A stretch of DNA of 64,000 nucleotides from contig CAVXRD010000001.1 in the NCBI GenBank assembly GCA_963764165.1, positions 448,001 through 512,000 of the forward strand, in the 5' to 3' direction. The notes beneath the pieces were generated by a model, which saw nothing but the letters and a program-made list of their open reading frames with translations, was not told the DNA's origin and did no database searches. Both the position numbers and the translations under genes were made by a program. Of this stretch, positions 30,513-47,925 are shown piece by piece. The stretch comes from an uncultured Verrucomicrobiae bacterium (GTDB lineage: Bacteria > Verrucomicrobiota > Verrucomicrobiia > Limisphaerales > Palsa-1400). Each line of letters opens with the position of its first letter. Within the stretch, counting starts at the first letter, position 1.

Positions 30513-31069
30513 CTCGGGGCAATATTATACAGCACACCCGCCCGTCACAAAAGCGCGAATCGGAGTCCTGAAGAATGCGGGGGCGCGCCTCACCTTTTGC
30601 GTCGATGAAACTCCGAGCGTCAAGCGATCAATCCCATGTTGCTTCGTGAGGCTTGGAATTCAGAGCAGCGGTGCGCTAACGTCGACAGACCCCTCTCATG
30701 GATGACCCTTTCTCAGTCGAGCTAGACATGAAAAGAGTCGTCCCCGGGCTTGGCCTTCCGAACGCTGCTTGAAAATCCATCAAAGAAAAATGGGATGTCA
30801 TCCTCGCGGTTCCCTCGCATCCGGCTCCTGACGCGGTCAAGCGTGATAATCGCAATGCGAAAACGAGGCTCGCCCACAGCCTCCAATTGAGTTCAAGCGA
30901 CTCATCCGGTGCGGGCAATCTAGCGATGTCAAATTACATCCGCTCCTTTTAGGATTCGATCCGAAGCCATTGCACCCAAGCTTTTTCGCGCCTGCGGTTC
31001 GGGGCCGCCTTTGCTTGCGCTGAAGCGGGTGCATCGAATTGGCGTTTGGATTTGCTGCGAATTGAAAAA

Positions 31070-33832
31070 CTAACGCGCTTGCAGACGGAAGAATTGCGCA
31101 CCCGTTGCCGATGGAACTATTGCAGCCTGCCATTGTCCGCCAGAGTAGCTCACCGCATTGGTTGCGGGTGTCCAACTGCCCGTCGATAGATCTGTTGATG
31201 TGTATAAGACAAACACTCCAGCGCTCTGGGGCCAATCGACAATCGTCATATTGTTTGAATTCGTCACCCCAATGACTGGCGAAGGATTCACTGCGGATGC
31301 GCTGTTGAAAATGCCGTTCGACGTCGCATTCATCCAGGACGCCCATATCCAATTGGATGAGCACAAGCCTGAAGCGATGCGGGCTTCGTCCATCGCACCG
31401 GCGAAATAATATACATTGTTGGTGAACCTTCCAAAGTCGAGCGGGCTGTTGTTGGCAAAGTCAGGGACCGTTGCGCCGCCGGCCACATTGGTTCCGTCCA
31501 CATACAATTGAGCCGAACCAAGAGTCTCATTGACACTCGCGGCGACCGAGTGCCACACGCCTGGCTTCATTACGCCAGCCGAAGAAGACAGGGTTTGCCC
31601 GTTGCTGCCATCGCCATCTTCGAAGAGCAGACGCTGATCCGCCGTGTTGTAAGTGTTGACGTAGAGACCAAAGCCATCGGTATTCCATCCGCCCGGTTTG
31701 TTGGCGAATATGGTTTGAATATTGCTAGCGCCAGAAGCGGGCCTCACCCAAGCAAAAAGAGTGAACGCAGTTCCCGCGTTAACCGATCCCGCGTGGAGAT
31801 AGGAAGTTGAGCCGTTGAACAATCCGCCCCACCCTGCTTCGCCCACCGTCACCTCGGGCGCGACACCAGTCCTGGCCGGATAATTGCCCGTGCTGTCGGT
31901 GTAGGGAAAGTAGCTTTGCTCCAAATGCCATACGAGCAAGTGTCGCGGCTGCCAAACGGAGCCGTTCGTCGTGTAGGCTGGCGGCGAGGCGGCCAATGGA
32001 TTTCCCCAGTACGCCCATATACACGTGTTCGTTCCGCTCAAAACCGGCAACCGAACCCAAACGGTCGACGTGCCGGCAGTGTTCCATTGATTAATCTCAT
32101 GCGGAATGACCGTCAGGCCGCCAGCATCCGTGAATCGCAAATCGCCACCGGTCGCTGAGGCGAACGTTGAATATGAAAATCCCGCCAGGCCGTTGCTGAA
32201 TTCCATCAAGGCCGGAAAATTTCCCAGCGCCTCAGCGCGGTTATAACCAGGAAATGTGATCCTCATTCGGCAGGCATAGTTCGTCGTTGCCAAACCTGCC
32301 GTGCTTAGCGGATTCGCGGCAGGAGCCCAAACTTGGGCGCTCGCGTTGCTGGCGAAGAACGACACATAGTAATTCGTTCCGGCCAGCAAGTTGGTCAACA
32401 AGACCGAATAGGTCGTCGGATTGAAGTTTGTATTGATGGCAACCACCATGCTGGATTCCCAACTCGCGGGGTTCTGCCCGCCATTCTGCCGCCCCCAATA
32501 CACCGATACCGTCGCATCGTCATCGCCGTAAACGCCTTGCGCGAGCGAGGCGGAAGCAGAAGCGATTGTTTCGGATAGAAGGCTGACGTTTGCGTTCGTC
32601 AGCGTGAGATTCACCGGGGCCGCCAGTGGCGAGTTCAGCATCGGTGACACAAGCGCCGAATACTGCGTGTCCGTGGGCAAAGCTCCTGTGGACTCGTTAA
32701 ACTGCGCCACCATGAGTTTGGCCGCGTTCAGGAAATACTGGTGCAGATAGTAACACGGCGCTTTTGTATCGGTTGGGCTTATGAGATAATAGTTAGTCCC
32801 TCCCGCCGAAGGCGTCTGGTTGTTGTACATCTCCCAAAAAAGTATGAAAGGCAGGCATTGTCCTCCGTAATTCCAACCGAGCAGACGTTGGATGTAGGAA
32901 CGCGTCACCGGCTCTTGGGCGGCAGGCGTTTCATAACCCCAGCCATACTCGCCGATCCACAACCGCTCACCCTGAACGACCGGCGCTTTGTTGGTCGGAA
33001 TGTGTGACTGGATGTAGTTTAGCGTCGTGTACAAATCCGAACTGCTCAGATTCTGCGCATCGTAGGATGAGTACGAAACATAATCCAGATTCGTCACGTA
33101 AGGAATGACGTCATTAATGACGCGCTCGTTATTGGTCGGTCCATTCAGCATCGCATCGCGCACGCGGTTGCACTCGGAATAATTGTAAACGAAGACGTTT
33201 GTGTGGGCCGTGGCGTTCTTTGCATCATCAACCGCCTTCTGCCGGTTGTTCAGCCAGCCGATCATTCCCGAGATCGTCGCAGCCGACGGATTCGTGGCCC
33301 ACGCCGTCCCGTTTACGGTAACGCTCAAGTAGCCATCCCCTTCCCAATGACCAAGGTAAAACGTCTTGCCGGAATTGTTATAGTTGGTCAGAAGGTAGCA
33401 CGTAAGTTGATACATTTCCGTATAATCCACCGCTCCCTGGGTGGCATTATACCCGCCGCCCCACCACTCATCGGAATTTCCGAATGGATACTCCCAAATG
33501 ATGAAATGGCGAAATGGCATGTCCAGCACTTGTTTGTAGGATGGCTCATCGCGCGCCTCGGTGATCAAGTTGGTTACATTTGATGGCAGCGTGACGCCCG
33601 CCTGATAGGCGGAGTCACTCCCCATGTAGAACTTAATGACGTCACTCCCCATGTTGGTGATCGCCTCAGCGGTTTCAACAAGCACCGTGTTGGTTGTGAA
33701 ATGGTACAGCCCTGCGAAGGTCTCCGTTCCGACACGAATGTTGTAGCCATCCACTGCCGGAATGGCGAGAGTGGCCGCCAGGCCGGACGCAGCCGCCACC
33801 GCCCAGGCGCCCAAAATAAGAGGCATTTTCAT
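31070..33832 (-). CDS. Secreted multidomain protein: putative TIM-barrel glycoside-hydrolase-like domain + DUF2341 + LamG + C-terminal FFRL domain
   Basis: Signal MKMPLILGAWAVAAASGLA; FYLGHWEGD and LWIGEYGW acidic motifs; GGDLRFTDA...HEINQWN...VWVRLP DUF2341; LamG WHSVA...LYVDG...MDEARI. Confidence 0.85.
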   Translation of the reverse strand: MKMPLILGAWAVAAASGLAATLAIPAVDGYNIRVGTETFAGLYHFTTNTVLVETAEAITNMGSDVIKFYMGSDSAYQAGVTLPSNVTNLITEARDEPSYKQVLDMPFRHFIIWEYPFGNSDEWWGGGYNATQGAVDYTEMYQLTCYLLTNYNNSGKTFYLGHWEGDGYLSVTVNGTAWATNPSAATISGMIGWLNNRQKAVDDAKNATAHTNVFVYNYSECNRVRDAMLNGPTNNERVINDVIPYVTNLDYVSYSSYDAQNLSSSDLYTTLNYIQSHIPTNKAPVVQGERLWIGEYGWGYETPAAQEPVTRSYIQRLLGWNYGGQCLPFILFWEMYNNQTPSAGGTNYYLISPTDTKAPCYYLHQYFLNAAKLMVAQFNESTGALPTDTQYSALVSPMLNSPLAAPVNLTLTNANVSLLSETIASASASLAQGVYGDDDATVSVYWGRQNGGQNPASWESSMVVAINTNFNPTTYSVLLTNLLAGTNYYVSFFASNASAQVWAPAANPLSTAGLATTNYACRMRITFPGYNRAEALGNFPALMEFSNGLAGFSYSTFASATGGDLRFTDAGGLTVIPHEINQWNTAGTSTVWVRLPVLSGTNTCIWAYWGNPLAASPPAYTTNGSVWQPRHLLVWHLEQSYFPYTDSTGNYPARTGVAPEVTVGEAGWGGLFNGSTSYLHAGSVNAGTAFTLFAWVRPASGASNIQTIFANKPGGWNTDGFGLYVNTYNTADQRLLFEDGDGSNGQTLSSSAGVMKPGVWHSVAASVNETLGSAQLYVDGTNVAGGATVPDFANNSPLDFGRFTNNVYYFAGAMDEARIASGLCSSNWIWASWMNATSNGIFNSASAVNPSPVIGVTNSNNMTIVDWPQSAGVFVLYTSTDLSTGSWTPATNAVSYSGGQWQAAIVPSATGAQFFRLQAR

Positions 33833-33934
33833 CCAATTTTGATACAAAATTTGCCTCCTTAGCAATCGAGGCGTGCGCCATGCTTAGACGGACGCCTGGT
33901 TGCAATTATTCAGAAACTCTCCGGGCTGCTATTC

Positions 33935-36900
33935 CTACTTGCCCTGCAAGCGGTAGAAATGACTTCCAGCCGCGGCGGGCACGGTCTGCTGCCAGACGCC
34001 ATTTGTCATAATGGCGGTTGTGTTGGTTACAGGGGTCCAGCTTGCGGGTGCGGCCAGACTCGTTGTCGTCTCCAGAGTGAACGCTCCATCCCCGGTCGGC
34101 CATGTAAACTCATAGCCGCCCGCGTACGGCGCGATAGTCAGGGTCGGCTGGAGATTGACCGATGAGTAACTTAAAAATGAGCTTTCATACATATTCAAAT
34201 ACGTCGTCGCAATCCAGTTGCTGGACGCAATGCCAGATTGGACACGCGCTTCGTCGATGGTGCCGTTGAAATAGAACACCGGGTCAAGGAATGCGCCCAG
34301 ATTCAGTTGGTTCGTCAATCCAAACGTCGGCACTGCTGCACCCTTGTCGTTATAGACTCCATCCACATACAGCTCAGCAATGGAGTTGACCTGATCCCAC
34401 GTGGTGGCCAGCAAATGCCACTGGGCGACCGGCACTGTTCCGGCCGCGCTAAATGGATCAGCGCCCCCGCCAGCGCCGTTGCCGCTGTCGAAGTGGACGG
34501 CGCCGTCGCTCGTGTTGTAAGTATTGACGAACAACGAGAAGCCGTTGTTGCCATAACCGCCATGCGCGTTGGCCCAGACGGTTTGAATGTTCGCGGCGGT
34601 TGCACTCAAATAAACCCACGCATACGTCGTGAATTGATTGCTGAGCGTGACAACGCCGGGTGTGATGAAGTCGGATGTCCCGTTGAAATCCTCCCCATGA
34701 CCTACAATTCCAGTCGCCTGGACTGGCGCCACGCCGTTGGTGGCCGGATATTGGCCCGTGCTATCGGCATAGGGGAACCCGCTCTCTTTCAAGTGGTAGA
34801 CAACTTCGTAATCGGCATTTAGCCAGACATTGGTGGATCCAGGGGATTCGTCGGTATCGTTAGACTTGCCCCAATACGCCCAAATGTTCGTTCCGTTGAG
34901 CACAGGCACCCGCACCCAGATCGTGGAAATGCCGTTGTTGTTCCATTCATCAATTTCGAATGGCAGAACTCCCGTCCCGCTGGCATCGGTGAATCGCAAG
35001 TCGGAGCCATTGGTTGCCAACTGCGAATAGGAAAACCCGGGGATTTCCGAGGGATTCAAGGTAATCAGCGCGGGAAAGTTGGTCAGCGGCTGGCCAGTGT
35101 ATCCCGGGAAGCCTATTCTTACGCGATACGCATAGCTGGATGGCGTCAACTGCGGAACCGGCACGCCAATTACCGTAGCGGTGCTGCTGACCGCGGGAAC
35201 GCCATTGGCTTGCGATGCCGTGGCGGAATTTGTAATCGTGACGTAGTAACTATTTGTCCCCGCCAGAGCGGTGAATGTATAGCTGGAATTGGTCGCTCCA
35301 GCCACAGCATTGCCATCGGCATACCATTGGTAGCTGAAAGGCGCCGTGCCAGAGACGATCACAGCAAAGGTGATCGAATCCAATCCAGAATACAGCTCCA
35401 CCGTCTGCTGAAGAGGCGAGATGTCCTGAACGATTTGCGGCGGCCCGAGCGCCACGCTCAAATATGGGTAATCACTCACAGTTCCATAAGCGTTCGACAC
35501 CGTGATGGTGTACTGCCCCTGTGAACTCGCCTGCACATTTGAAATCACCAGCGTGGGATTGGTGGAGACCAGATTATTATTGGGATCAAACCAACTGTAG
35601 GAGAGCGGCGCTGTCCCGGTTGCCACGACCGTGAATTCAGCAGTGGATCCGACGTTGGTCGTTTCATTTTGCGGGGTCAAAGACTCGATGATCGGCGCAA
35701 CGCCTGAGGCGAAGTAATGATTTTGAACCTGGGCCGGAGTCAGGGCATAGTTGTAAACGGCCACCTCGTCTATGGCTCCAAAAAATTGGTTGTCGTATTG
35801 CGACCCAAGACTTTCCTGGCGCGCGCCGATCGTCAACGGCTGGGTCGAAGTCAGCACGCCGCTTTTGACAGGTATGTTTCCGGTGCCCGCATTGGTTCCA
35901 TCAATATAGATATGCACATGCCCGTTTGCTTCATCGCACACTCCAACGACATGGTGCCACTCGCCGTCCGTCTGTGGCGCGAAAGTGCTAGTGGCGCTTT
36001 CGGAAGTGCCGCCGGCATCGCGAACGTAAAACCGCAGGTCGTGGGCCGGGTCGCTGCCCCCGCAATCGAGGGCGAATTCCTCGCCGCCGTTACCATAGCC
36101 GATGGAAATGATTCCGCTGTCACTAGAAACACCATATGCCTGCAGCCAGCATTCGACGGAGAACTCGGCGCTTACGTTGGTAGGCGCGGCAAAATTCACA
36201 TTGGTGGGCACCCAGCCGACGTAACTATTGTTGGCACTCACAATGCCAAATACTGGCGCCGCCCCTTCTGTCGGGTCCGTTGTGGTGTCGTAGGGGGCGG
36301 CGTCGGCCAAGGCCACATTCGTGTATATGCCATTGTATCCACCGACATAGTCAAAGGCAGTGTCGCCTGAACTTTCGTCCAGCCGCCAGAATGCCATGGG
36401 GCCATCCTCCAGCACCGCCACTGGATACGGCGCGGTGGGATCCGGCAAAATCGTCACCGTGATTGGACCCGTGGAGGTTGAACCTGCGACATTGGATGCC
36501 GTTCCGACGTAGGTGGCGCCCGCTTGAACATTCGTGATCCGATAGGTTCCATTGGTGGATACGACGACTCCGTTTGAAGTCCACGAGTAAGCAATCGGAA
36601 CGGCGCCTACCGCCCCGATCGTCAGCGACGGGCTGGATCCGGCATAGACCATGATGTTGGCTTGCGATTCATTCACGAAGGTTGGCGCTCCGTAAATGTA
36701 GACTTGAACCACCGAGCTTGTAGCGGGCGCGCCGAATCCGTTGGCGGCAACAAAATACCAGCTTCCACTGGCGTTCGTGAGCACTGAACTGTAAGACAGA
36801 ATTGCATTCGTTTGGCCAGATACGGGCACAAAGCTCGAACTGCCAGGAGCCTCCTGATACCATTGATACGAGATGGGCTGCGAACCGCCAACGATACCTG

Positions 36901-38698
36901 AAGCCGCAATCGGCGAGCCTTGATTATTTGTGACACCCACTGGCTGGACTCGAATGTAGGGCGGCACTTCAGCCGTATTGAACAGGGACTGAATTTCAGC
37001 CGCAGTCAGCGCATTTGTCCAGAAAGCCACGTGAGCCACCTGGCCGTCGAAATCACGGATAGTGTTGGCGGAACCCCAGCTTGCGTAAGTGTATTCCGAA
37101 TCCCCGCCCAGCAGTAGATCATTGACATTTCCGGCGATTTTAATGCCGTTTGTGTTCGAGGCTGTGACAGCCAGCGCCCCGTCAAGATACATATACTCGT
37201 TGGTGCCATCGCTCACACCAGCAACCATGTGCCAGTGGCCGTCATTAAAAGCCCAGCCGTTCGTGGCAACGGCAGCCGCGGTCGTGAACTGCAACTCGGG
37301 CCCCGGCCCTGGATTAAAGTGGTTTTCCGCCGCGACTTGCCCCAGCGCAAGCCGGTACGAGCTGTCGCCGTGCCCCACCATCTCTTGGAAGCGCCCAGGC
37401 GCATCGGCAATATTGCCTCGGAACCATGTGACAAGTGTCAATGGAACCGCATTGGAAGGGTTCAGGGCCGCGGGCAAACTGCCGCCTCCCACGTCCACCG
37501 CCCCAAACCAGCCGTTGATGGCGACGCTGGTGCTGGAACCGCCAAAGCCGCCGTAACCGGGACCCGCCGCGCCAGGGCTGGTGCCCGGCTGATACACGCC
37601 GTTCGCCGCCGCGCCGATCGTTCCGTAGTTTGTAGCCGCGGGAAACGTGCGGGCGGGATAGCCGGCGTTAGTTTGATAAACGGGATCGTTTAACCGATAG
37701 TAAAAGCCGGGATTATCCGCCAGAACGGACGCTGGGTAGTTTGCTCCAAACGTGGAATTTGTGCCGTAAGCCGTTTGATAGTGGTTTAGAATGCTGCTCT
37801 GTGGCAATACTTCGTTGTAGATGGCGACATCGCCTATCGTCCCCTTGAATCCGTTGCCATAGGAGGCGGAAGGTTCGCTGCCAGAACCGATCATCAGCGG
37901 CGTGCTGGGATCCGGGACAAATGGCTTGCCGTCCTTGCTTATGATGTTCAGAGTGCTTACCAGGTTGCCGTTCGTGTATAACGCTTCGGTGGTGCCATCA
38001 AAGGTCGCAACAACATGGATCCACTCGTTTAGCCCCACCCAGCCGTAAGTGTGGCTTGAGTCCAGTTCATGACCCTTGCTTTCGGCGTTGGTTCCATTGC
38101 ATATGAAAAAGAAGTAGTTTTGATAGCTTCCGAGCTCAACGCCGGACCACCCAAGCCCAGTGCCGCCGTAGAACGGATTGTTTGTGTTCGGGCCCCCGTA
38201 ATTCACCGTCGAAAAACCGCCCTGCCCAACGATATCGAACAGGCCGTTGTTCGTGCTGGCGAACTTCACCCATGCCTCTATTGAGAATGGCGGGGTCAGC
38301 GTCAAATTTGTGTTGATCGCGCCATTCGCCGTGCGAGGCACAATAACGTACTGCCCCGGCTGACCGGCGCATACCATGCCGACGCTATTATCGAACGGCG
38401 CAGTGACAGCGGGCGCCTGCGCAATGTTATTCGTAATATACCACGTCGTGCCGGACGGTTGGTACCAGGCGCCGTAATAACCGTTCGCCTGCCCGCCAAG
38501 AGTTCCGAGATTGACAGCGATATTGCTGAACGCAAAAGCAGACGGCGGAGGAACCGTTTCGTTTAAGGGCCAGTAACCAGCCGGACTCAAATTCGTTACT
38601 GCCTGAAAGTAGGGACTCGAAGGCTGGGCTTGGGCTGCCGAATTAACGGCCAGCGCCGCAATGATGGCGGCGGAACGGGTGAGCGTGTTTCTTGGCAT
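33935..38698 (-). CDS. Very large secreted LamG (concanavalin-like)/Ig/DUF2341 multidomain surface protein
   Basis: Signal peptide; four LamG-like domains (FSIEAWVK, WHMVAGV, WHHVVGV, WHLLAT); Ig domains (ISYQWY, LSYSWF, FSYQWY); GSDLRFTDA DUF2341; ends HFYRLQGK. Confidence 0.92.
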   Translation of the reverse strand: MPRNTLTRSAAIIAALAVNSAAQAQPSSPYFQAVTNLSPAGYWPLNETVPPPSAFAFSNIAVNLGTLGGQANGYYGAWYQPSGTTWYITNNIAQAPAVTAPFDNSVGMVCAGQPGQYVIVPRTANGAINTNLTLTPPFSIEAWVKFASTNNGLFDIVGQGGFSTVNYGGPNTNNPFYGGTGLGWSGVELGSYQNYFFFICNGTNAESKGHELDSSHTYGWVGLNEWIHVVATFDGTTEALYTNGNLVSTLNIISKDGKPFVPDPSTPLMIGSGSEPSASYGNGFKGTIGDVAIYNEVLPQSSILNHYQTAYGTNSTFGANYPASVLADNPGFYYRLNDPVYQTNAGYPARTFPAATNYGTIGAAANGVYQPGTSPGAAGPGYGGFGGSSTSVAINGWFGAVDVGGGSLPAALNPSNAVPLTLVTWFRGNIADAPGRFQEMVGHGDSSYRLALGQVAAENHFNPGPGPELQFTTAAAVATNGWAFNDGHWHMVAGVSDGTNEYMYLDGALAVTASNTNGIKIAGNVNDLLLGGDSEYTYASWGSANTIRDFDGQVAHVAFWTNALTAAEIQSLFNTAEVPPYIRVQPVGVTNNQGSPIAASGIVGGSQPISYQWYQEAPGSSSFVPVSGQTNAILSYSSVLTNASGSWYFVAANGFGAPATSSVVQVYIYGAPTFVNESQANIMVYAGSSPSLTIGAVGAVPIAYSWTSNGVVVSTNGTYRITNVQAGATYVGTASNVAGSTSTGPITVTILPDPTAPYPVAVLEDGPMAFWRLDESSGDTAFDYVGGYNGIYTNVALADAAPYDTTTDPTEGAAPVFGIVSANNSYVGWVPTNVNFAAPTNVSAEFSVECWLQAYGVSSDSGIISIGYGNGGEEFALDCGGSDPAHDLRFYVRDAGGTSESATSTFAPQTDGEWHHVVGVCDEANGHVHIYIDGTNAGTGNIPVKSGVLTSTQPLTIGARQESLGSQYDNQFFGAIDEVAVYNYALTPAQVQNHYFASGVAPIIESLTPQNETTNVGSTAEFTVVATGTAPLSYSWFDPNNNLVSTNPTLVISNVQASSQGQYTITVSNAYGTVSDYPYLSVALGPPQIVQDISPLQQTVELYSGLDSITFAVIVSGTAPFSYQWYADGNAVAGATNSSYTFTALAGTNSYYVTITNSATASQANGVPAVSSTATVIGVPVPQLTPSSYAYRVRIGFPGYTGQPLTNFPALITLNPSEIPGFSYSQLATNGSDLRFTDASGTGVLPFEIDEWNNNGISTIWVRVPVLNGTNIWAYWGKSNDTDESPGSTNVWLNADYEVVYHLKESGFPYADSTGQYPATNGVAPVQATGIVGHGEDFNGTSDFITPGVVTLSNQFTTYAWVYLSATAANIQTVWANAHGGYGNNGFSLFVNTYNTSDGAVHFDSGNGAGGGADPFSAAGTVPVAQWHLLATTWDQVNSIAELYVDGVYNDKGAAVPTFGLTNQLNLGAFLDPVFYFNGTIDEARVQSGIASSNWIATTYLNMYESSFLSYSSVNLQPTLTIAPYAGGYEFTWPTGDGAFTLETTTSLAAPASWTPVTNTTAIMTNGVWQQTVPAAAGSHFYRLQGK

Positions 38699-38772
38699 AG
38701 TGTTTGAACGTGTTGACTAAAATGCTTAATTGTATTGACACTGAGTGATTGATTCCTCTTATGACAGCTAAC

Positions 38773-38799
38773 CTATACGATTCGATATTAAGGGTGACA
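38773..38799 (-). promoter_or_regulatory. Candidate ECF-sigma promoter, copy 3
   Basis: TGTCAC-ccttaatatcgaatcg(16)-TATAG upstream of the ATG at 38698. Confidence 0.6.
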
Positions 38800-39065
38800 A
38801 GTTAAAATAGCCGCCTGGAATTCGATTTAACCTCACCGACACAATTACCGGCATATTCCTGGCAGATGTCGTCATATAAGCTATTCCCGGGCAGCAAAGA
38901 CAATTCGTCTCAACAATACCCTGCCCGGGCATTTCTTTGCTGTGGTGCCGGAAAATCTCGCAGGTCGGGCGGGAAAAGTCCATTATATTCTTGCCTGACT
39001 CACCCTGTTTGCAGCCTAAGACTTCCCCTTACGAAGGCCTCAAGGAATTTACGAGTGGAAACAAA

Positions 39066-39228
39066 ATAAAATCCTCCGCGTCATGCGGCCATGGGCCTTG
39101 GCGGCGAATGAAAACGCAAACCAGACGCTAATATTTTTGCAGAGCTGTTCCAGCGCGGCGGCTGCTTGCGTATCGCCCTTCCCCGCGGCCAGCACCGTCG
39201 TCCAATGCGTGGTGGTGAAAAGAGAAGC
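39066..39228 (-). pseudogene. Decayed N-terminal part of a second ECF sigma gene paralogous to 47152..47913
   Basis: ASLFTTTHWTTVLAAGKGDTQAAAALEQLCK / frameshift / Y*RLVCVFIRRQGPWPHDAEDF aligns with AFSTTLWTVVL...ALEHLCRIYWRPVYAFIRRRGASPHDAEDL. Confidence 0.85.
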
Positions 39229-39497
39229 TTCACTAGCCGGCGCGGATAGCTCCGGCCCATCTGCGCTCTTCCGCGAAAGGTCGTTGGTTTTTAAAGCGGC
39301 TGCCGGGGTAAACAAAACTGCCCCCTGTGGTCAGCCATTTTCAAAGCACGTTCCATCGCGCGGAAAACGAAGCCGGCCTCTTTTCCATAGCTCCTGAGTT
39401 ATCGATCAAATTATCCGCCTTTTCGCGGGGTCATTAGCCTGCACCTGCGGCCAAAGCAGTTCGCAAATGTCCTCAGCCGTGACAATCCCGTTGAGAC

Positions 39498-39647
39498 GGG
39501 TAGTGCGACCGTCTCGGTCGCCTCCAGTCGGCGCCCCGCCGACTGGCTCTGGCGGAAAATGTGGATTCACCTTTCGGTGATCTATCAAAAGCGTAAGGTG
39601 TCTTCGGCGGGACGCCGAAGAAGGCGGTCGAGACGACCGCGCTCCCC
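39498..39647. repeat. Composite palindromic REP/MITE-like element
   Basis: Ends GGGTAGTGCGACCGTCTCGGTCGC ... GCGGTCGAGACGACCGCGCTCCCC; internal hairpins CCAGTCGGCG-ccc-CGCCGACTGG and CTTCGGCG-gga-CGCCGAAG. Confidence 0.8.
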
Positions 39648-39670
39648 AATTTCAGCTGCATTGTTACGGC

Positions 39671-42600
39671 TCAGGGAGTTGAGAAAAAGTAAAAGCGATC
39701 CGGGTAATTCACAGCGTTCGTGTCAGTGAACTGCCACATGCCGCTGGCATCTATGTTGTTGTTTGTGAAAATCGGCTCCCAAAGGCTGGGTTCCGCCAGA
39801 TTGGTTGTGGCCCACAGGCGGGCGCTGCTGCCTGGCAATCCGGTCAAATTCAGCGTAATGCTTCCGTCGGAGTTCCGCGCAGGGTTGGAGAGCAATGGAG
39901 CGATTAGGGTGAGCGTGGCCACGCCGCTGGTCGCGCTGCCATAAAGATTGGTGACGGTGACCGAATAAATTCCTGCTTGCTGTACGCGAATATTCGGCAG
40001 GGTCAACGTCTCGAGGAACGGCCCTTCCACGGGGTTGGTTTGATTGAAATACCATTGGAATGAGGCCGGATACGGGCTGAGGACGCCAACGTTGAACTGC
40101 ACTGTCCCGCCGACCAGTGCGGTTTGACTCAGCGGCCCGAAGTTCGTAATAACCGGGTAGCAATTTGTCAGGACTTGGACTGTTGTTGTTTGGACGTAAG
40201 GAGAGCCGGGATTAGCGCCGGATGCCGTGGACCCAGTGTAATTATTGACGGAAACGGTAACGGTGTATGTGCCAGCCTCGCCGTATTGCTTTTCGAATAT
40301 AGTTTCGGGCTGGGTGAAAATCGAAGGCGTCGTTCCGTCGCCCCAGTCGACCGTCCCGCTCGCTGAGGTGACCGTGACCACGCCGGGATTGGGATTTACC
40401 ACCACGTCGAATGTCATCGGTTCGCCCGTGCAACCCAGATTGTTGAACGTCGCCGGAACGAAGTAAGATTGGTTGATCGTCGCCGTAGCGGCGCCGGTGG
40501 TTGTGGTTGAATGGCCGTCGAAACTGCCGCCTCCAACGAGCGGAAAGGTTCCCGAGCCGCCGGCAAGGGCGTAGCCAAAGGTGCGCGCGTGATTGTCAAA
40601 ATACGGTCCCCATTGGATGGCGCCGGTCGCTCCATTCCATAATCCGTCCGCGGAAATGGCGGTTGGCATTACGCCCGGCGGCAACACCTCGGTAACGGTA
40701 TAACAATTCACACTTCCTTGCGGTGTCGCAGCTATGGCCACAGACGGGAAAAGCGTGCCATTGCCTGACACGGTTCTGGCCAGCGAGAGCGAATTGGTGG
40801 ATAGGGCCGCATACTCTCCCACGGCGGACGAACTGGGCAGATAACCGGGCCGGAATGCCGCCACGCGCAACGTCGTTTGGGTGTAAAAGGTCAGAGCACT
40901 GGTGTAGAGCGCGCTGGTTTTCGTGGGCACCGTGCCGTCCGTTGTATAATAGATTGCGGCCTCGGGATCAGGCGATGAGATCGTCACCGTCACTGGGAGG
41001 TTGGATGCGGTGGGGGGTAAAAGAATCGGGACGGTTTCTTGCGAGGGCGCGGCGGGCACCGTGTAAGATGAGGAGGATGCAACGGTGACATTCATGATCG
41101 ACTGGCTGCTGACGCCGTCGGCGCTCAGCGTCAATTGCACCGGATAAGTTCCCGGCAGGCCCGTTCCTTGGAAACTGAGACTTTGCCCGTTGACGCCAAA
41201 GAATGGCCCCCAATAGATCGCGTTGTCGCCAGCCACGTAGCTGCCGCCGTCCGAAATGCTGGTCGCGCCCAGGCCTGCGGGCAATGTCGCCGTTACTGCA
41301 ACACAGCTCGCATTGGTCGCCGGAACAAGCCCAAGAGTCACCATTGGCGCCAACGGATTGCTGAAATTCACGCTTGCGGTGAGCGTGGCGTCGGGCGGCG
41401 CGGCTGGCGGCCCGTAAACCGCGACGCTGGCCGAACTAGGGAGGCAGTTGCTGGCAAAAGCGACCGCCCGAATCAGGCTGGCCACTGTGATCGGAAAGGG
41501 CTCGGCATAAAGGAAAGAGTTTGGCGAGCCTTGCGCGGGCAACGATCCATCCAGCGTAAAATAAATCGCGGCATTGGGTGTGGCATCGGTGATTGTGACC
41601 ACGACCGGCACATTGCTGCCGCTGCCAGGGGAAAAGACGGGCGGACTGGCCTGCGTCGGCGGCGTGGACACGCTGTTGGTTGCCTCGGCGGCAATGGTTA
41701 CGTTGGTAATGAGTTGCTCCGAACCAACGCCATCCACACTCCACGAGAATTGGACCGGGTAAGTTCCCGGCGCGCCGACCGCCTGATAACTCAACACCTG
41801 CGCGTTGGTCCCGAAAAATGGACCCCACAAAATAGCGCTGCCGTAAAGACTCCCTCCGCCAGAAATGCTCGTGGCTGACAGCCCCGGCGGCAATGTTTCC
41901 GTGACCGCCAGGCAAGCCGCGTTGGTGCCGGGCACCGCCATGATGGTGACGACTGGCGCGACGGATGCATTAGCATTGATTCCAATATCAACTTGCGCAT
42001 TCGGGAGCGCCGCCGACGGACCATAAACGGCAACACTGGCGGAACTGGGCAGGTAGTTGCTGGCAAACGCAACTGCGCGAATTAGGATCGGGGCCGTTAT
42101 GGAAACGGGATTGGTGTAGAGGATCGAGGCTGGGGAGCTTTGCGTGGGCAACGTGCCGTCCAGCGTGTAATAGATAATAGCATTGGTCACCGCGTTGGTG
42201 ATCGAAACTAGGACTGGAACATTGGAGCCGCTGCCAGGCGTGAAAACCGGCAAGGGCAGCTGCAATGGCGCTGAGGGCGCGGTGATAGGCCCCGTGGTTT
42301 CGAGAATGGTGACCAGAGTTGGGCCCGGAGAAAAGTACCAGGCGCCATCCATCCATGCTCCTCCGCTGACGGGATAACTGGCTGGCAAGCCCTTCAGGCG
42401 GTAGCTGACATTGGTGGCGGCAGTGCTGAAATAGGGCCCCCAACGAATGGCGTTGATAGCCGGCAGCCAAACGCCATCGCCGCTGACGGCGACGGCGGTG
42501 GCGGGAGCGGGAATGGTCTCTTCAATGCTAAAACACGAAACGCCCGCAACCCCCGAAACAGCAATTGTCACCAGCGGTTCGTTGGGAATGTCACTGACGA

Positions 42601-42700
42601 AGGAACGCACGTAGGAAGCCGGAGGGACATTCGTCTGCGCCGAGGCGGCCAGCGCGCTGAAGAGCGCGAGGCATAACGTGGACAGTGTGAATGTTTTCAC
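39671..42700 (-). CDS. Secreted repeat protein: 4 WGP(Y/F)F beta-rich domains alternating with 3 CHB_HEX_C/Fn3-associated domains, then PKD-like, Ig and C-terminal FYF domain
   Basis: GTG start with RBS GAGGAG; signal peptide; IYYTLDGTLP, IYFTLDGSLP, IYYTTDGTVP; VDWGDG; WGP motifs spaced 615/615/600 nt. Confidence 0.9.
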   Translation of the reverse strand: MKTFTLSTLCLALFSALAASAQTNVPPASYVRSFVSDIPNEPLVTIAVSGVAGVSCFSIEETIPAPATAVAVSGDGVWLPAINAIRWGPYFSTAATNVSYRLKGLPASYPVSGGAWMDGAWYFSPGPTLVTILETTGPITAPSAPLQLPLPVFTPGSGSNVPVLVSITNAVTNAIIYYTLDGTLPTQSSPASILYTNPVSITAPILIRAVAFASNYLPSSASVAVYGPSAALPNAQVDIGINANASVAPVVTIMAVPGTNAACLAVTETLPPGLSATSISGGGSLYGSAILWGPFFGTNAQVLSYQAVGAPGTYPVQFSWSVDGVGSEQLITNVTIAAEATNSVSTPPTQASPPVFSPGSGSNVPVVVTITDATPNAAIYFTLDGSLPAQGSPNSFLYAEPFPITVASLIRAVAFASNCLPSSASVAVYGPPAAPPDATLTASVNFSNPLAPMVTLGLVPATNASCVAVTATLPAGLGATSISDGGSYVAGDNAIYWGPFFGVNGQSLSFQGTGLPGTYPVQLTLSADGVSSQSIMNVTVASSSSYTVPAAPSQETVPILLPPTASNLPVTVTISSPDPEAAIYYTTDGTVPTKTSALYTSALTFYTQTTLRVAAFRPGYLPSSSAVGEYAALSTNSLSLARTVSGNGTLFPSVAIAATPQGSVNCYTVTEVLPPGVMPTAISADGLWNGATGAIQWGPYFDNHARTFGYALAGGSGTFPLVGGGSFDGHSTTTTGAATATINQSYFVPATFNNLGCTGEPMTFDVVVNPNPGVVTVTSASGTVDWGDGTTPSIFTQPETIFEKQYGEAGTYTVTVSVNNYTGSTASGANPGSPYVQTTTVQVLTNCYPVITNFGPLSQTALVGGTVQFNVGVLSPYPASFQWYFNQTNPVEGPFLETLTLPNIRVQQAGIYSVTVTNLYGSATSGVATLTLIAPLLSNPARNSDGSITLNLTGLPGSSARLWATTNLAEPSLWEPIFTNNNIDASGMWQFTDTNAVNYPDRFYFFSTP

Positions 42701-42733
42701 CAGAGATCCTCCTCGTAAGAAGGTTGGAGGTTC

Positions 42734-45217
42734 TTAAGGTTGGATCTTCCAATTCACGGGACGGGTGCTGCCGTCGTTGTAATAGGCGCCCCCGTTCGTC
42801 ATCAGGAAACCAGCTCGTGTCACATAATTTGCCGGGATGGGATTCGGCGGCGCGTTGCTCCAGCCCTGGCCGCTTTTCCATGCGGCGGCGTAAGCGGCGA
42901 ATTCGCCCGCCGTGATGGTCCACGCCTGGTTGGTGTCCGCCGGATGAAACACATTGGTGGTCAATTCGTAGCAGCCCATGTCTACTGAGGCGTTGGCTAG
43001 CCGAGGATTGCCGTCAAGGTCGTTCGCGGGCAATGAGGGGGCATTTGCGGTTCCGGCGCCCCAGCAAAGCGATGTGCTCGGAAAATGGAAATCTCCGGCC
43101 ACTGGATTGAAGAATTGGGGTGAGACATCCACATTGCTCTGAGCGATGGTCCAAACCCCATACGAACTGTCGTAGTCGTTGCATTCCAGTTCGCTGGGCG
43201 AGCCGCCGCCTGTGAGATAAACGTCAGACCCCGCCCCGCTGGCGGACGAATTGCCCCAGATGATGTTATTGAAAACGTAAAACGCCTGCGTGCCGCTAGT
43301 TTGGGTGTTCTGGATGGCGAGCCCGCCGCCGCCGCCGGCGGAGGTGTTGCCGAAGAGGGTGTTGTTGATCACGTAAATCATGGACGACGCTAAGGAAGGC
43401 GCCACATAAATACCGCCTCCTTCGTAACTGGCGCCCGACTGACTATTGTTGACGATCAAGTTATCGGTGATGGTGGCATCGTCGGTATTCGCGTAAATCG
43501 CGCCCCCTCCGTAAGCGGATGAATTCCGTTGAAATGTGTTGCCGATAATGGTTGGCTCTCCCTCATCGACACAAATAGCCCCCCCCGAACCGCCGCAAGT
43601 ATTCCCTGTAAATCTATTGGCGGTGACCAGCAGCGCAGGAACGCCGTAAGCGTAAATGGCCCCGCCTTGGTTATTGCATTGATTTGCGTCAAACGAATTG
43701 TTGGAAATCGTCAACGTCGAGCCAGCCACCTCCAGCGCGCCATGATAAACGCTTGTGTTGCCCGTGAAAGTGTTCCCGCTCACAAGGCCATAATCTGCGC
43801 TAAGCTCTGCCGCACCCGGCGGGGCATAGGATGTGTTCCAAGTCGAATTGTCGAGAAAGGCATTATTTGTCACAAACAATGTCGAGGCGGATGCGCTCAA
43901 TCCGCCACCGTAAATCGAGCTGTTTTCATAAAAAGTGTTGCCCGTTATAACGGCCGTGCCTTGATAGCCCGTCGAGACAGCCGCGCCCCCAGAGTAAGTG
44001 TTCGAGGTAAACAAGTTGCTGATGAGATTGAGCGCAGCGCTGGCGGAGAGATTCGCCCCTTCAGCGTTGGCTGTCAAGACATTATTCATCACGCTAATGA
44101 AACTGGGGCCATTGGCATAGATGCCATAATCGGCATTACTCTGGGCGATCACATTCGATACGGTCAAAATCGCACTGGCGACAACGGCTAAACCGTGCCC
44201 GTAGTTCCCTGAGAAAGTTGAGTTCTCAATGACATTGGTTCCAGTCACTCCGGTGATATAAATTCCGGTTCCATCGTTGCCATTGGGTTGCTTGCCAATG
44301 GCCGTGCAGTTGGAAATCACCGTGTATAACCCCGAGGTGATTTCCAACCCCATCCCTTCGCTATTTGAGAGGACAAGGAATTGGCAGTTGGTCACAGTGA
44401 TCGTTCCGCCGCTGCTGGCGCCGATGCGCAAGGCGCCGATTTGGCTGTTTCCACAATTACGCACGAAGGTCATGCCGGAAACGGTCACGTCGCCCGAGCT
44501 TCCAGTGCAGGTGATATTGAGGTCGCGTCCCCCGGCCGCCCCATCGAGCGTAATGGCGGGATTGGTCACACTCGGCTCCGGCATCAGCGTCAAACTGGTA
44601 TTGGCGGCGCTGTTGTAGTTGAAATTGCCCGTATAATACCCGTTGGCCAGATAAATGGTGTTATTCGCTCCGTTGTTGGCCGCTTCTGTCAGCGCGTTCT
44701 GCAAGTCCTGGGCGGTGACGACGTGAATACCGGTGGACGCCTGCCACGACCCAGAATCGTCATCGTCAATTTGCCCATACACTTCCGTCCAGAACCGATT
44801 GATATGCCCGCTCCCTACAGCAGCGTCCTCGCCTAGCTCGATTACGTAATCGGTTCCTCCGTTGTTGGGCGTGTCGGTGGCTTGCACTAACATGGAGGTG
44901 ATCTGCTGAGAATTCCAGGTGAATTGGCCCGAATAAGTTGCCCACCCGTAGAACGCATCATCGCCAATCTCGGCCGAAGGATAGCTGAGCGTCCCGTTGA
45001 TGGGAGTGGTAACCTGGATGGATATGATGTCCGCGGCTGATCCACCGCCTAGAGGGGAGACTGGCGCATCGAGAATGATTTTGCCGGAGAATCCAGGCTT
45101 GCCGCCGACCCAGTCATATTCGTAGTTGCCGCCCAGCACAGGAAGGGAAGCACCAACCAGCAAAACTCCCATGGTCACTGCATGAGTTTTCCAGCGGGAA
45201 CAGGTCAATGGTTTCAT
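42734..45217 (-). CDS. Secreted right-handed parallel beta-helix protein with choice-of-anchor-Q-like segment and EF-hand/dockerin-like tail
   Basis: Signal peptide; many NTFxxNxxxxGGAI repeats; NNIIWGN...PQFFNPVAGDFH...DLDGNPR...DMGCYE; tail HPADTNQAWTITAGEFAAYAAAWK. Confidence 0.9.
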   Translation of the reverse strand: MKPLTCSRWKTHAVTMGVLLVGASLPVLGGNYEYDWVGGKPGFSGKIILDAPVSPLGGGSAADIISIQVTTPINGTLSYPSAEIGDDAFYGWATYSGQFTWNSQQITSMLVQATDTPNNGGTDYVIELGEDAAVGSGHINRFWTEVYGQIDDDDSGSWQASTGIHVVTAQDLQNALTEAANNGANNTIYLANGYYTGNFNYNSAANTSLTLMPEPSVTNPAITLDGAAGGRDLNITCTGSSGDVTVSGMTFVRNCGNSQIGALRIGASSGGTITVTNCQFLVLSNSEGMGLEITSGLYTVISNCTAIGKQPNGNDGTGIYITGVTGTNVIENSTFSGNYGHGLAVVASAILTVSNVIAQSNADYGIYANGPSFISVMNNVLTANAEGANLSASAALNLISNLFTSNTYSGGAAVSTGYQGTAVITGNTFYENSSIYGGGLSASASTLFVTNNAFLDNSTWNTSYAPPGAAELSADYGLVSGNTFTGNTSVYHGALEVAGSTLTISNNSFDANQCNNQGGAIYAYGVPALLVTANRFTGNTCGGSGGAICVDEGEPTIIGNTFQRNSSAYGGGAIYANTDDATITDNLIVNNSQSGASYEGGGIYVAPSLASSMIYVINNTLFGNTSAGGGGGLAIQNTQTSGTQAFYVFNNIIWGNSSASGAGSDVYLTGGGSPSELECNDYDSSYGVWTIAQSNVDVSPQFFNPVAGDFHFPSTSLCWGAGTANAPSLPANDLDGNPRLANASVDMGCYELTTNVFHPADTNQAWTITAGEFAAYAAAWKSGQGWSNAPPNPIPANYVTRAGFLMTNGGAYYNDGSTRPVNWKIQP

Positions 45218-45252
45218 AATTCGTTGTTCGTTGAATTTGATCGGTCACTTAC

Positions 45253-45281
45253 TTCTAAAGCGTCAGCTCAACGCAGTTACA
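45253..45281 (-). promoter_or_regulatory. Candidate ECF-sigma promoter, copy 2
   Basis: TGTAAC-tgcgttgagctgacgc(16)-TTTAGAA upstream of the ATG at 45217. Confidence 0.7.
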
Positions 45282-45365
45282 ATTTATTTTGAAACCGGTC
45301 ATTTTTCCCGAGCTTTGGAGAGAATCGGGAGACGACGACTGCGGCGGGGCCGTTGACGCCCTCCA

Positions 45366-47084
45366 TCAGGGATGGTTCGATTTTTTGGAAGAAAAGCCGT
45401 CGGCGTTCATGGAAAGGCCCGGCACGTTTGTTAATTGTTTGGACCAATTTTCCTTAACAAAGCCATTGAAAGGCGCCAAGCCTATGTAGGCAGACCATCC
45501 TCCGACAGAATTGTAAATGGCCAATTCCAATTTTCTGGGGACACCTGCGCGAAAGGATATTCGGTTCGTCGGGTAGAAGCCGAAGCCTGATCCTGCCAGA
45601 AATTGATCATCCACGAAGAGGCTGTGCCCGTCGTCGCCCGAAATGACAACATCTATGTCCCTATCCACGCTGGACTCAACCCACGTTGTAAGTATTTGGT
45701 ATCCCGTGTTTCCACCGGGGTCAAAAATGTCAGGCCCCTCATCGCTGATCGGGCTGGTCTGGCCCTTGCATTCGCGTGGCGAAGTATAACCGCGGAACAC
45801 TGCTCCCGCGTATTCACCGGGCGAAGTTGGAAAGTAGCTTGTGCCTTTTGGCTGTCTTTCAATCAGTTCCGAGTATCGCCATGCGCCAACGGGTGAAGAG
45901 GTAAAGAACGCGTTCTGCGGCGGTCGATGATGCGCCTCATAGGCCCATAATGGAATCAGAACGGCCAGAACCACCGCCAACACCAGCGCGGCATCCACCA
46001 AACGCCGACGATGCCGCGAGACCGCTCGTGAATACATATACCAGACGCTTGCCTGGGCGGCCTTCACCGGCCTGGAAGTCAGAAATCGATCCAAGTCATC
46101 AGCCAGGTCGGCGGCGCTTTGGTAACGCTGGCTGCGATCCTTGTAGAGCGATTTCAGCACAACGCGATCCAAATCGCCACGGAGAGATGGCACCCGGCTG
46201 GATGGGCGCGAGGGCTCTTTCTCGCGAATCGTGCGAAGGATTTCATCGAGCGCAGCTTGCCGAAGTTCGCCCGCATCGAACGGCGGTGCGCCAGTCAGCA
46301 ATTCATAGAGCAGAATTCCCAGCGAATAAACATCGCTCCGCCCGTCCACCTCGCGGAGGCCCAACCCGGCTTGCTCCGGGCTCATGTAGGCGGGCGTGCC
46401 AAGGAATTGCTCGAAGGCGGTGAAATACGTCTTGTCCGTCAAGGGCTGGTCGGACACAGCCTTGGCAATGCCAAAATCAATGATTTTCGGGGTGGCGCCT
46501 TGCTCGTTGGACGAAACGAGAATATTGGACGGCTTCAAATCCCGATGAACGATGCCTTTTTGATGGGCGTGCTGGACAGCCGCGCACACTTGCATGAAAA
46601 GAGCGATCCGTTGGCGCACGTCGAGCTTCTGCGTGTCGCAATAACTGGTGATCTTCTGGCCTTGCACCCATTCCATGACGAAGTAAGGACGCCCGGAGTC
46701 CGTCGCGCCGGCATCAAAAACCTTGGCGATGCCCGGATGGTCCATGCGCGCCAGCGCCTGTTTCTCGGCCGCGAATCGAGCCACCACGGCTTTGGTATCC
46801 ATTCCCAATTTGATGATCTTCAGAGCCACGTTTCGCCGAATAGGCTCCCGCTGGCTTGCCAGATAAACTGTTCCGCAGCCGCCTTCGCCCAATTTCCCGA
46901 GCAATTGATAGGGACCGATCCAGCCGCCGATTTCTTCCGCCACTGCGGCTGGCTGGGAAGGCGGAACCGGCTGTTCAGAATCAAGCTCCAGCGCAAATTC
47001 CAACAGGCAATGCAGGCAATGCCCGCGAGGTGCTCCCGGAGACACGCCTCTGCCGCAACGAGTGCATTTCTGGACATCGGCCAT
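45366..47084 (-). CDS. Hanks-type Ser/Thr protein kinase with N-terminal Zn-finger, one TM and extracytoplasmic PA14-like domain
   Basis: CTRC...CLHC; GEGGCGTVY; VALKIIK; HRDLKPSN; IIDFG; GTPAYMSPEQ; DVYSLG; TM LVLAVVLAVLIPLW; ISGDDGHSLFVDD (PA14-like DDG). Confidence 0.95.
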   Translation of the reverse strand: MADVQKCTRCGRGVSPGAPRGHCLHCLLEFALELDSEQPVPPSQPAAVAEEIGGWIGPYQLLGKLGEGGCGTVYLASQREPIRRNVALKIIKLGMDTKAVVARFAAEKQALARMDHPGIAKVFDAGATDSGRPYFVMEWVQGQKITSYCDTQKLDVRQRIALFMQVCAAVQHAHQKGIVHRDLKPSNILVSSNEQGATPKIIDFGIAKAVSDQPLTDKTYFTAFEQFLGTPAYMSPEQAGLGLREVDGRSDVYSLGILLYELLTGAPPFDAGELRQAALDEILRTIREKEPSRPSSRVPSLRGDLDRVVLKSLYKDRSQRYQSAADLADDLDRFLTSRPVKAAQASVWYMYSRAVSRHRRRLVDAALVLAVVLAVLIPLWAYEAHHRPPQNAFFTSSPVGAWRYSELIERQPKGTSYFPTSPGEYAGAVFRGYTSPRECKGQTSPISDEGPDIFDPGGNTGYQILTTWVESSVDRDIDVVISGDDGHSLFVDDQFLAGSGFGFYPTNRISFRAGVPRKLELAIYNSVGGWSAYIGLAPFNGFVKENWSKQLTNVPGLSMNADGFSSKKSNHP

Positions 47085-47092
47085 ATGAATTG

Positions 47093-47121
47093 TTCTAAAC
47101 CAACAAACCAGCGTGGTTACA
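47093..47121 (-). promoter_or_regulatory. Candidate ECF-sigma promoter, copy 1
   Basis: TGTAAC-cacgctggtttgttgg(16)-TTTAGAA, 8 nt before the kinase ATG. Confidence 0.7.
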
Positions 47122-47151
47122 AAAAAACTGGCTCCGCCGATGCGCTCAGCG

Positions 47152-47913
47152 CTAGTCGGAAATCGAGGCGAAGAGATGGCGCACTTCGTCGTCCACCTCG
47201 GCCCGCGTCACCACGGTTTGAGCGACTTCCGTTCTCAATATTTCTCCAAACCGGCGGCGCAGACGATGCAAAGCGACCTTGACGTTTCCGGCGCTCATGC
47301 CGAGCGCGGAGGCGGCGTGAGCGCTCTTCTCCGCGGTCAGTTCCTGGGTCAACCACGGCTCAAGGGCTGCAAAAAGTTTCTGTTTCCCGGATTCTTCATA
47401 TTCGGCCTTCAATTGAGCCATGACCCGCTCCACTAGGACGATGGCCCAGCCGCAGTCAAATTGCGCCTCCGGCGTCATTCCCTCCGCGGTTTCCCGCGCG
47501 AAGACGGCTTCCGCGTCGTCCAGCGAGATAATTTCGCATTGACCGCCGCGTTTGAGCCTCTGGTGCCGTGCATGCTCATTATTGAGAAAATTTGCCAGTG
47601 CCGCCAAAAGGAAGGTCCTGAATTTGCCCTTTTGCTTTTCCGCTTTTTTGATGCCGTCATACTCGAGGAAACTGGAGAAAAAGCCTTGGGTCAAATCCTC
47701 GGCATCGTGCGGAGAAGCTCCGCGCCGTCGGATAAACGCGTAGACAGGCCTCCAATAAATCCTGCACAGGTGCTCCAAAGCTCGCCCCGCCTCTTGCGCG
47801 TCGCCGGAACGGACGGTCAGAACTACGGTCCAGAGGGTGGTAGAGAAGGCTGGGCCATGCTCGGTTAAGGGCTTTCTGGCTTCGGGCAATGTAGGTTCTC
47901 CCCACTGTTTCAT
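47152..47913 (-). CDS. ECF sigma-70 factor of the kinase-associated PVC type
   Basis: FSTTLWTVVL, YWRPVYAFIRRRG, HDAEDLTQGFF, KGKFRTFLL, RLKRGG; region 4 ALGMSAGNVKVALHRLRRRF. Confidence 0.93.
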   Translation of the reverse strand: MKQWGEPTLPEARKPLTEHGPAFSTTLWTVVLTVRSGDAQEAGRALEHLCRIYWRPVYAFIRRRGASPHDAEDLTQGFFSSFLEYDGIKKAEKQKGKFRTFLLAALANFLNNEHARHQRLKRGGQCEIISLDDAEAVFARETAEGMTPEAQFDCGWAIVLVERVMAQLKAEYEESGKQKLFAALEPWLTQELTAEKSAHAASALGMSAGNVKVALHRLRRRFGEILRTEVAQTVVTRAEVDDEVRHLFASISD

Positions 47914-47925
47914 TCCGTGCGCGCA

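Follow-up and report, generated by a model that had tools for sequence, protein, structure and literature searches.

Gene Organization of the Locus

We analyzed a 64,000-nucleotide (nt) stretch of DNA from an uncultured Verrucomicrobiae bacterium (GenBank assembly GCA_963764165.1, contig CAVXRD010000001.1, positions 448,001–512,000), hereafter the window, with respect to a sigma factor of the extracytoplasmic function (ECF) type, the receptor kinase encoded after it and the secreted proteins that follow. An earlier note on this DNA had described six co-oriented genes, and all six minus-strand open reading frames (ORFs) were recovered in place. It had also described a sigma factor that keeps the DAED motif, unlike EcfP, and has no anti-sigma gene, and a kinase with a Cys4 finger and one transmembrane (TM) helix; these features are all present (D70-A71-E72-D73 in the sigma; CxxC-x12-CxxC at residues 7–26 and a helix at 362–381 in the kinase). 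The features of the sigma/kinase cassette and its cargo are the following.

47926–47953, minus strand: sigma70-type promoter-like site before the sigma gene, TTTACA-N16-TAAAAT (10/12 bases)
47152–47913, minus strand: gene for an ECF62-like ECF sigma factor of 253 amino acids (aa), identified with the TIGR02937 profile
47093–47121, minus strand: putative ECF promoter copy 1, TGTAAC-N16-TTTAGAA, between the sigma and kinase genes (exact motif and matrix)
45366–47084, minus strand: Hanks-type Ser/Thr receptor kinase of 572 aa (PF00069, E 7e-48)
46989–47066, minus strand: Cys4 finger and amphipathic helix of the kinase, residues 7–32, predicted to bind sigma4 (motif and complex prediction)
45942–46001, minus strand: single TM helix of the kinase, residues 362–381 (hydropathy 2.6)
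45369–45917, minus strand: PA14-like ectodomain of the kinase with the DD-N triad D484, D485 and N525 (profile and triad)
45253–45281, minus strand: putative ECF promoter copy 2, before the β-helix/scaffold cargo operon (matrix rank 1)
42734–45217, minus strand: cargo 1, a secreted protein with a PEP-CTERM-type N-terminal domain (residues ~25–160) and a right-handed β-helix (domain scans)
39671–42700, minus strand: cargo 2, a secreted repeat scaffold with three CHB_HEX_C/Fn3_assoc repeats, PKD, Ig and an FYRL-type tail (domain scans)

The Sigma Factor and Its Receptor Kinase

The sigma scores 45.1 bits against TIGR02937 (cut-off 42.9), and its alignment-based model (predicted local distance difference test, pLDDT, 83) matched ECF sigmas only in Foldseek, weakly (E 0.018 or worse). 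D73 of the acidic region-2.2 motif is conserved in 44 of 44 aligned family sigmas, in all of which Thr26 and Thr233 are invariant and Ser/Thr29 likewise present; family-specific extensions add an N-terminal FxTTxW and a C-terminal TVxxxxEVDDE motif. Among the window ORFs beside the sigma gene there is no separate anti-sigma ORF, and the upstream neighbor is a divergent gene. In one family member encoded without an adjacent kinase, the orphan sigma at G000 C2:3552907-3553587 (minus strand), Thr26, Thr233 and a portion of the linker are no longer present.

A scan of positions 30500–48200 returned six sigma70-type sites, the best-scoring being the one before the sigma gene; since shuffled sequences yield more such sites (9.7 on average), the support for it lies in position and score. 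The site suggests that the sigma gene may be expressed constitutively. Autoregulation of the sigma gene through the TGTAAC motif was rejected, the best upstream matrix score being −3.3.

The catalytic motifs of the kinase are intact (Gly loop, VALK, HRDLKPSN, DFG and an APE-like motif). Pfam matches of its finger are zinc ribbons, and the four finger cysteines are invariant in 44 rows, which were selected by that very motif. Five further sigmas of the window type precede finger kinases in this genome. The window kinase is 33–39% identical to the finger kinases of the same genome and 45–58% identical to kinases with a helical N terminus.

Kinase loci were collected by an order-wide profile search whose model covered the whole kinase. 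The window kinase's catalytic clade holds 106 kinases, of which the 53 with an adjacent sigma were counted and the 53 without were left out; finger kinases were selected by alignment start, independently of the neighboring genes. All 29 finger kinases follow a sigma of the window type (one of them partial and relabelled by hand), whereas of the 24 helical-N-terminus kinases (six labels assigned by eye) 22 stand behind an ECF43-like sigma and 2 behind one of the window type. By motif, we take these ECF43-like sigmas to be of the PF07638 type. The 29 finger kinases are not monophyletic (11 changes; approximately unbiased test, p 1.9e-7), on a tree that is itself poorly supported. The finger appears to co-occur with the window type of sigma across kinase clades, a pattern that goes beyond the literature found. 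Two further arrangements were seen among these loci: a kinase with a Cys4 finger and a helical N-terminal module in tandem (L052:2981-5077, minus strand), possibly an intermediate of module swapping, and a single sigma with three finger kinases behind it, each of which has a promoter copy to itself (L105:1543-11494, plus strand).

Predicted Complex of the Finger with Sigma4

The complex of kinase residues 1–40 with sigma residues 18–253 and zinc was predicted with a score of 0.78, compared with 0.00 for the best of three controls. The score passes a mark reached by 116 of 157 solved pairs and 2 of 215 mismatched pairs, a calibration that is rough here, given the use of our own alignments and a zinc ligand. 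At least 86% of the contacts are common to the runs, and the pLDDT of the partner is at least 71. In the predicted complex Leu27, Leu28, Phe30 and Ala31 of the kinase pack on sigma residues 154–165, 185–191 and 219–230 and on the family-specific last helix (240–251). Sequence searches found no solved complex of this finger with a sigma; more general sigma4-helix complexes may guide the model.

In the structural passages of PMC6648896, ten residues of E. coli sigmaE contact the flap-tip helix. Seven of these map to predicted finger contacts (A157, V161, E162, M165, F222, L226 and V230), against 2.6 expected (p 0.003, with helical periodicity ignored and positions mapped by hand). The prediction places the finger helix in the groove of sigma4 where the flap-tip helix of RNA polymerase docks, the position expected of a tethered anti-sigma, which again goes beyond the literature found. 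Support for the earlier note's idea that the finger could be such a tethered anti-sigma comes from the passing complex prediction and the co-occurrence pattern.

A Promoter Downstream of the Sigma Gene

Exact matches to TGTAAC-N16-TTTAGA occur twice in the 7.0-Mb genome, at window positions 47121 (kinase) and 45281 (β-helix gene); in copy 1 the −10 element ends ~10 nt upstream of the kinase ATG. When 13,999,932 genome positions are scored with a matrix whose 22 training sites come from other genomes, the β-helix-gene site ranks 1st and the kinase site 2nd; the test is partly circular because these 22 sites were gathered with a window-derived pattern. A shared promoter had been proposed before three transcription units, and for these two the proposal holds. 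It does not extend to the third site:

38771–38799, minus strand: third promoter-like site of the earlier reader, TGTCAC-N16-TATAGG (score −1.4, rank 9,070)

This site was rejected as a target of the window sigma on its matrix score and rank, and a two-mismatch site carries little weight since the window holds 14 such matches against 5.4 expected. Loose motif counts are inflated by a short tandem repeat with an 11-nt unit (window 59657–59705, minus strand), with a similar repeat at G000 C4:513341.

Across 55 sigma-kinase pairs the family pattern consists of a TGTAAC-type −35 element, a 16-nt spacer and a clade-specific −10 element, placed between the sigma and kinase genes. The gap between the two genes scores above 8 in 45 of the 55 cassettes, compared with 6 of 550 shuffles (the matrix having been trained on those same regions). 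Further copies were sought in the 24 cassettes that have a strong site and no less than 600 nt of downstream DNA: in 8 of them, among these the window's, the cassette's own promoter variant recurs downstream (12 copies in all), and the opposite strand holds none in 207 kb. The putative family promoter sits downstream of the sigma gene, which also goes beyond the literature found. A paralogous sigma/kinase cassette (G000 C2:1790313-1794329) has a different −10 element, TTCTTAG, before the kinase and before its cargo, and a site similar to this variant at G000 C2:2422554 (plus strand) precedes the gene for a 515-aa protein with an FYRL-type tail, a possible target in trans.

Secreted Cargo and the Ectodomain

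The cargo 2 gene starts 33 nt after cargo 1, and the two form a conserved pair: of 10 loci fetched from 7 genomes, 8 have them side by side. A sigma or kinase was found in none of the 10 loci, three of which have little or no upstream DNA. Homologs of the extra N-terminal domain of cargo 1 are small PEP-CTERM-type proteins, found in 4 of 400 genomes, and the β-helix protein gave no sequence match in the PDB. The earlier expectation of hydrolase cargo was not borne out: the two genes behind promoter copy 2 carry no hydrolase annotation.

In locus L047 a β-helix gene lies behind a sigma/finger-kinase pair without the promoter motif. The true orthologs of the window kinase (L056, L057 and L059/L060) are followed by the same promoter, or a one-base variant of it, and by different secreted genes, which argues that the cargo is swappable. 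Secreted neighbors of this kind are common, since 121 proteins of the genome have a similar C-terminal tail under a loose pattern. At its core the locus appears to be an ECF62-like sigma/kinase cassette whose secreted cargo can be exchanged. After one orthologous kinase, L056:8389-10953 (plus strand) holds the start of a large protein that by motif resembles RHS/YD-repeat proteins.

The ectodomain is a C-terminal domain of ~180 aa outside the TM helix. A search among 1.84 billion representatives found 113 relatives at E ≤0.001, mostly small exported proteins. Of 75 aligned homologs, 44 are PEP-CTERM proteins; D485 is invariant among the 75, with D484 and N525 each present in 90% or more. The triad matches the DD-N calcium triad of PA14 domains, as given in the PA14 section of PMC6852018. 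The DDG-containing, PA14-like outside domain that had been proposed stands as far as D484-D485 and N525 are concerned; the Pfam scan of the ectodomain gave no match, and the profile evidence is weak. The profile matches are a lectin (E 0.003), AcoP and DUF4176 (E 0.006–0.007) and the clostridial PA14 sensor structures 6QDI and 6QE7 (E 0.07 and 0.11). PA14 is the nearest named Atlas cluster (0.90, 165 features), and a single-sequence AlphaFold2 model of the kinase reached a pLDDT of 33.6. Glycan sensing by the ectodomain is plausible at most. The unannotated PA14-like family with a GDDGH motif to which the domain belongs (window 45366–45917, minus strand; P0004-P0115) is common in PEP-CTERM proteins and large adhesins.

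Two secreted proteins (L058 and L061) begin with an ectodomain-type domain and lie behind the same promoter, so that the sensor looks as though it was recruited from the regulon's own cargo.

Proposed Mechanism and Its Alternatives

We tentatively favor a mechanism in which the kinase would be a tethered anti-sigma that lets the sigma go when a ligand binds, the kinase promoter providing negative feedback, and in which the sigma would control the kinase and the two cargo genes. The sigma would be made constitutively and held at the membrane by the kinase finger on its sigma4 groove. Binding of an outside ligand, likely a calcium-bridged sugar, to the ectodomain would activate the kinase, and phosphorylation, with Thr26, Thr233 or the kinase itself as candidates, would loosen the finger. 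The freed sigma would then transcribe the two adhesin-like cargo genes and more kinase, closing a negative feedback loop. The sigma/kinase pairing with a feedback promoter on the kinase gene had been foreseen, and promoter copy 1 before the kinase agrees with it.

A number of observations weigh against this mechanism. The sigmaE alignment behind the flap-tip comparison is weak (probability 22%), conservation of the interface columns does not significantly exceed that of the remaining C-terminal half (p 0.12), and the predictor may put any amphipathic helix into the sigma4 groove; nor can the predicted contact separate inhibition from substrate docking. An independent-pairs test yields only one pair on well-supported (starred) branches, the window-type sigmas L086 and L108 precede helical-N-terminus kinases yet keep the interface residues, and the co-occurrence of finger and sigma could be linkage, because sigma, promoter and finger are contiguous DNA. 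On the sensing side, the PA14 assignment is weak not only by its PDB matches (E 0.003–0.11), Pfam PA14 (PF07691) being found in 1 of 75 homologs (E 0.0026). The ectodomain is present in only 2 of 53 finger kinases beside the window type of sigma, others carrying WD40 or TPR, so that glycan sensing is not a family trait, and domain scans gave no carbohydrate-active annotation for the two cargo proteins.

In the main rival account the finger would be a docking module that brings an intrinsically inactive sigma to the kinase; phosphorylation at Thr26 or Thr233 in the family-specific extensions would switch the sigma on, a new site for the EcfP/EcfK logic, and the kinase promoter would give positive rather than negative feedback. 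The conservation of Thr26, Thr233 and Ser/Thr29 throughout the 44 sigmas favors such a role, as do the absence of both threonines from the orphan paralog without an adjacent kinase and the phosphorylation of EcfK at several sites beyond region 2.2, as presented in the phosphosite results of PMC13147305; the complex prediction fits docking just as well. We nevertheless regard docking as rather unlikely: the acidic region-2.2 motif is kept (D73 in 44/44), the predicted contact covers the core-binding groove, which suits inhibition, and the conserved threonines may be helix caps.

Alternatively, sigma and kinase would indeed be coupled but respond to something other than a glycan, the ectodomain having been acquired by fusion with a neighboring cargo gene and sensing a protein partner, calcium, the envelope state or nothing specific. 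This possibility draws on the occurrence of the same domain as the mature N terminus of the secreted proteins L058 and L061 behind the same promoter, on the PEP-CTERM homologs (44/75) and on the WD40 or TPR domains that other family kinases have in its place. It is made improbable by the orthologous kinases L056, L057, L059/L060 and P0004, which come from separate metagenome records and keep the DD-N triad, arguing for selection.

The LamG Unit and the Least Likely Alternatives

Beyond the cargo operon lie the last two of the six genes and the gap that separates them from it.

39472–39674, no strand assigned: dispersed inverted-repeat element of ~200 nt at the boundary of the two units (57 other blastn matches in the genome)
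39068–39234, minus strand: 5′ remnant, with a frameshift, of another sigma gene from the family of the window sigma (two frames of the sigma profile)
33935–38698, minus strand: giant secreted protein with four LamG domains, Ig and DUF2341, a separate conserved unit (domain scans and fetched loci)
31070–33865, minus strand: protein that combines a GH-A-like domain with DUF2341 and LamG and is paired with the LamG giant in the separate unit (domain scans and fetched loci)

The earlier note had placed a 17-kb lectin/hydrolase island under the sigma, and sigma control of all four downstream genes, as a glycan-utilization island of that size, would suit their co-orientation, the LamG and GH-A-like domains, and a third site that keeps the spacing and 9 of 11 motif bases; read-through into the LamG/GH unit is possible, as a simple scan found no terminator-like site in the gap. 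We consider such an island very improbable. The third site ranks only 9,070th, and the LamG/GH genes are left without a promoter of this type. Of 12 fetched loci, some of them short, 5 have the LamG giant directly beside the GH-like gene and a sixth has one gene between them; the window sigma or kinase is present in none of the 12, nor is the motif before the pair. The two units are separated by a 970-nt gap with the dispersed repeat, likely a MITE or REP-like family (miniature inverted-repeat transposable or repetitive extragenic palindromic elements), and the sigma remnant, whose frames match profile positions 3–35 (E 6.6e-10) and 28–57 (E 5e-5). The remnant suggests repeated cassette insertion at the gap. 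The LamG-giant/GH-like pair appears to be a separate operon whose genes are neighbors outside this regulon, and a conserved six-gene island was rejected, as both downstream gene pairs occur without sigma or kinase in the relatives' fetched loci.

Clan GH-A enzymes carry two catalytic glutamates on a TIM barrel. In the GH-A-like domain (residues 35–415), E175 and E306 are invariant in 14 rows, as are WEGD and GEYG motifs. Its best PDB match is the cellulase CelD (E 0.12), the domain sequence alone gave no PDB match, and the Atlas places it near a PF11790 cluster (0.92, with 133 features only). The domain represents an unannotated family, present in 25 of 150 relatives, that may be a new family of glycoside hydrolases. 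Both in the window (27135–30512, minus strand) and in L182 (L182:7949-10843) the LamG/GH pair has a DUF3160/HEAT protein behind it, which suggests that this is the older neighborhood. Other large exported proteins, with Ig-domain and Kelch/Ig architectures, are encoded at window 22841–26803 and 60419–63349 (both plus strand).

A purely physical linkage of sigma and kinase, with a finger whose role is structural or redox and unrelated to the sigma, is hardly credible given the passing complex prediction (0.78) and a cognate promoter before the kinase across the family, even though linkage would explain the co-occurrence, 17 finger kinases lack a sigma next to them and the independent-pairs test yields one pair.

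Relation to Known Systems

The architecture of ECF62, and the control of sigmas by PA14 sensors as in RsgI, are known already. The ECF62 entry of Casas-Pastor 2021 (PMC7826278) describes a group that is 100% Planctomycetes in the 2017 data and lists neither a conserved promoter nor a mechanism. According to this entry, ECF62 and the window cassette share a kinase at position +1 with one TM helix, an N-terminal zinc finger (subgroups s1–s3) and the lack of an anti-sigma gene. The entry also gives WD40 on the kinases of subgroups s1–s2, which is absent here but present in 4 of 8 family kinases scanned. The present family differs in its distribution (Verrucomicrobia, Acidobacteriota, Planctomycetia in one record, L035, Polyangiaceae and Actinomycetota records), in its conserved promoter downstream of the sigma gene and, in this member, in the PA14-like ectodomain. 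A promoter in that position would explain why ECF62 promoters were described as not conserved. The window sigma is best filed as ECF62-like rather than as a member, the comparison having been made with the group's description.

ECF43 (EcfP/PknT and EcfK/PknS) likewise pairs a sigma with a receptor kinase at +1, and the sections of PMC8999054 and PMC13147305 on this group describe sigmas that lack DAED, carry an S/T motif in region 2.2 and are activated by phosphorylation there; for PknS they give a predicted helical N-terminal bundle. The window sigma, in contrast, keeps DAED, and its kinase carries a Cys4 finger, although the catalytic domain is closest (51–58%) to those of helical-N-terminus kinases, several of which follow ECF43-like sigmas. 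ECF43 membership was rejected for the window sigma, in which DAED is present and the S/T replacement motif is not.

Zinc-binding anti-sigma factors (ZAS), such as RsrA, RshA and RsiW, have an HxxxCxxC zinc motif in the helical bundle of the anti-sigma domain (ASD). They resemble the present system in that a zinc site is tied to sigma inhibition (RshA/RseA passage of PMC8999054). The window finger, however, is a kinase-fused Cys4 ribbon type with no match to ZAS structures, and ZAS membership was rejected on CxxC-x12-CxxC, the Pfam zinc-ribbon matches and the absence of HxxxCxxC. In the clostridial sigmaI/RsgI system, as outlined in the parts of PMC6852018 on RsgI, an alternative sigma is likewise controlled by an outside PA14 module with DD-N, by way of one membrane protein, but RsgI is an ordinary anti-sigma that has no kinase, with a regulon of proven carbohydrate-active enzymes. 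Literature searches found no paper on an anti-sigma role of the zinc finger in these kinases; Jogler 2012, Wiegand 2020 and Iyer 2020 may mention the finger or the promoter.

It is possible, if still doubtful, that the finger-helix is an undescribed class of anti-sigma that mimics the flap-tip helix, that these kinases combine sensor, kinase and anti-sigma in one chain, that N-terminal modules, finger or helical bundle, form the code by which each of the many near-identical kinases in a genome is matched to its sigma class and that sensors are recruited from the regulon's own secreted cargo. What the locus provides is a target promoter, a predicted binding surface whose residues are named, a pair of candidate phosphosites and a small domain that is a candidate lectin sensor, and the differing −10 elements of paralogs could let them serve as orthogonal switches. 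The sigma/kinase family is abundant, occurring in 32 of 40 related genomes with up to 30 matches per genome. The 2022 review PMC8999054, in its discussion of kinase-linked ECF sigmas with DAED, leaves their regulation open; if true, the finger anti-sigma class would explain the control of DAED-retaining kinase-linked ECF sigmas across Verrucomicrobia, Planctomycetes and Acidobacteria.

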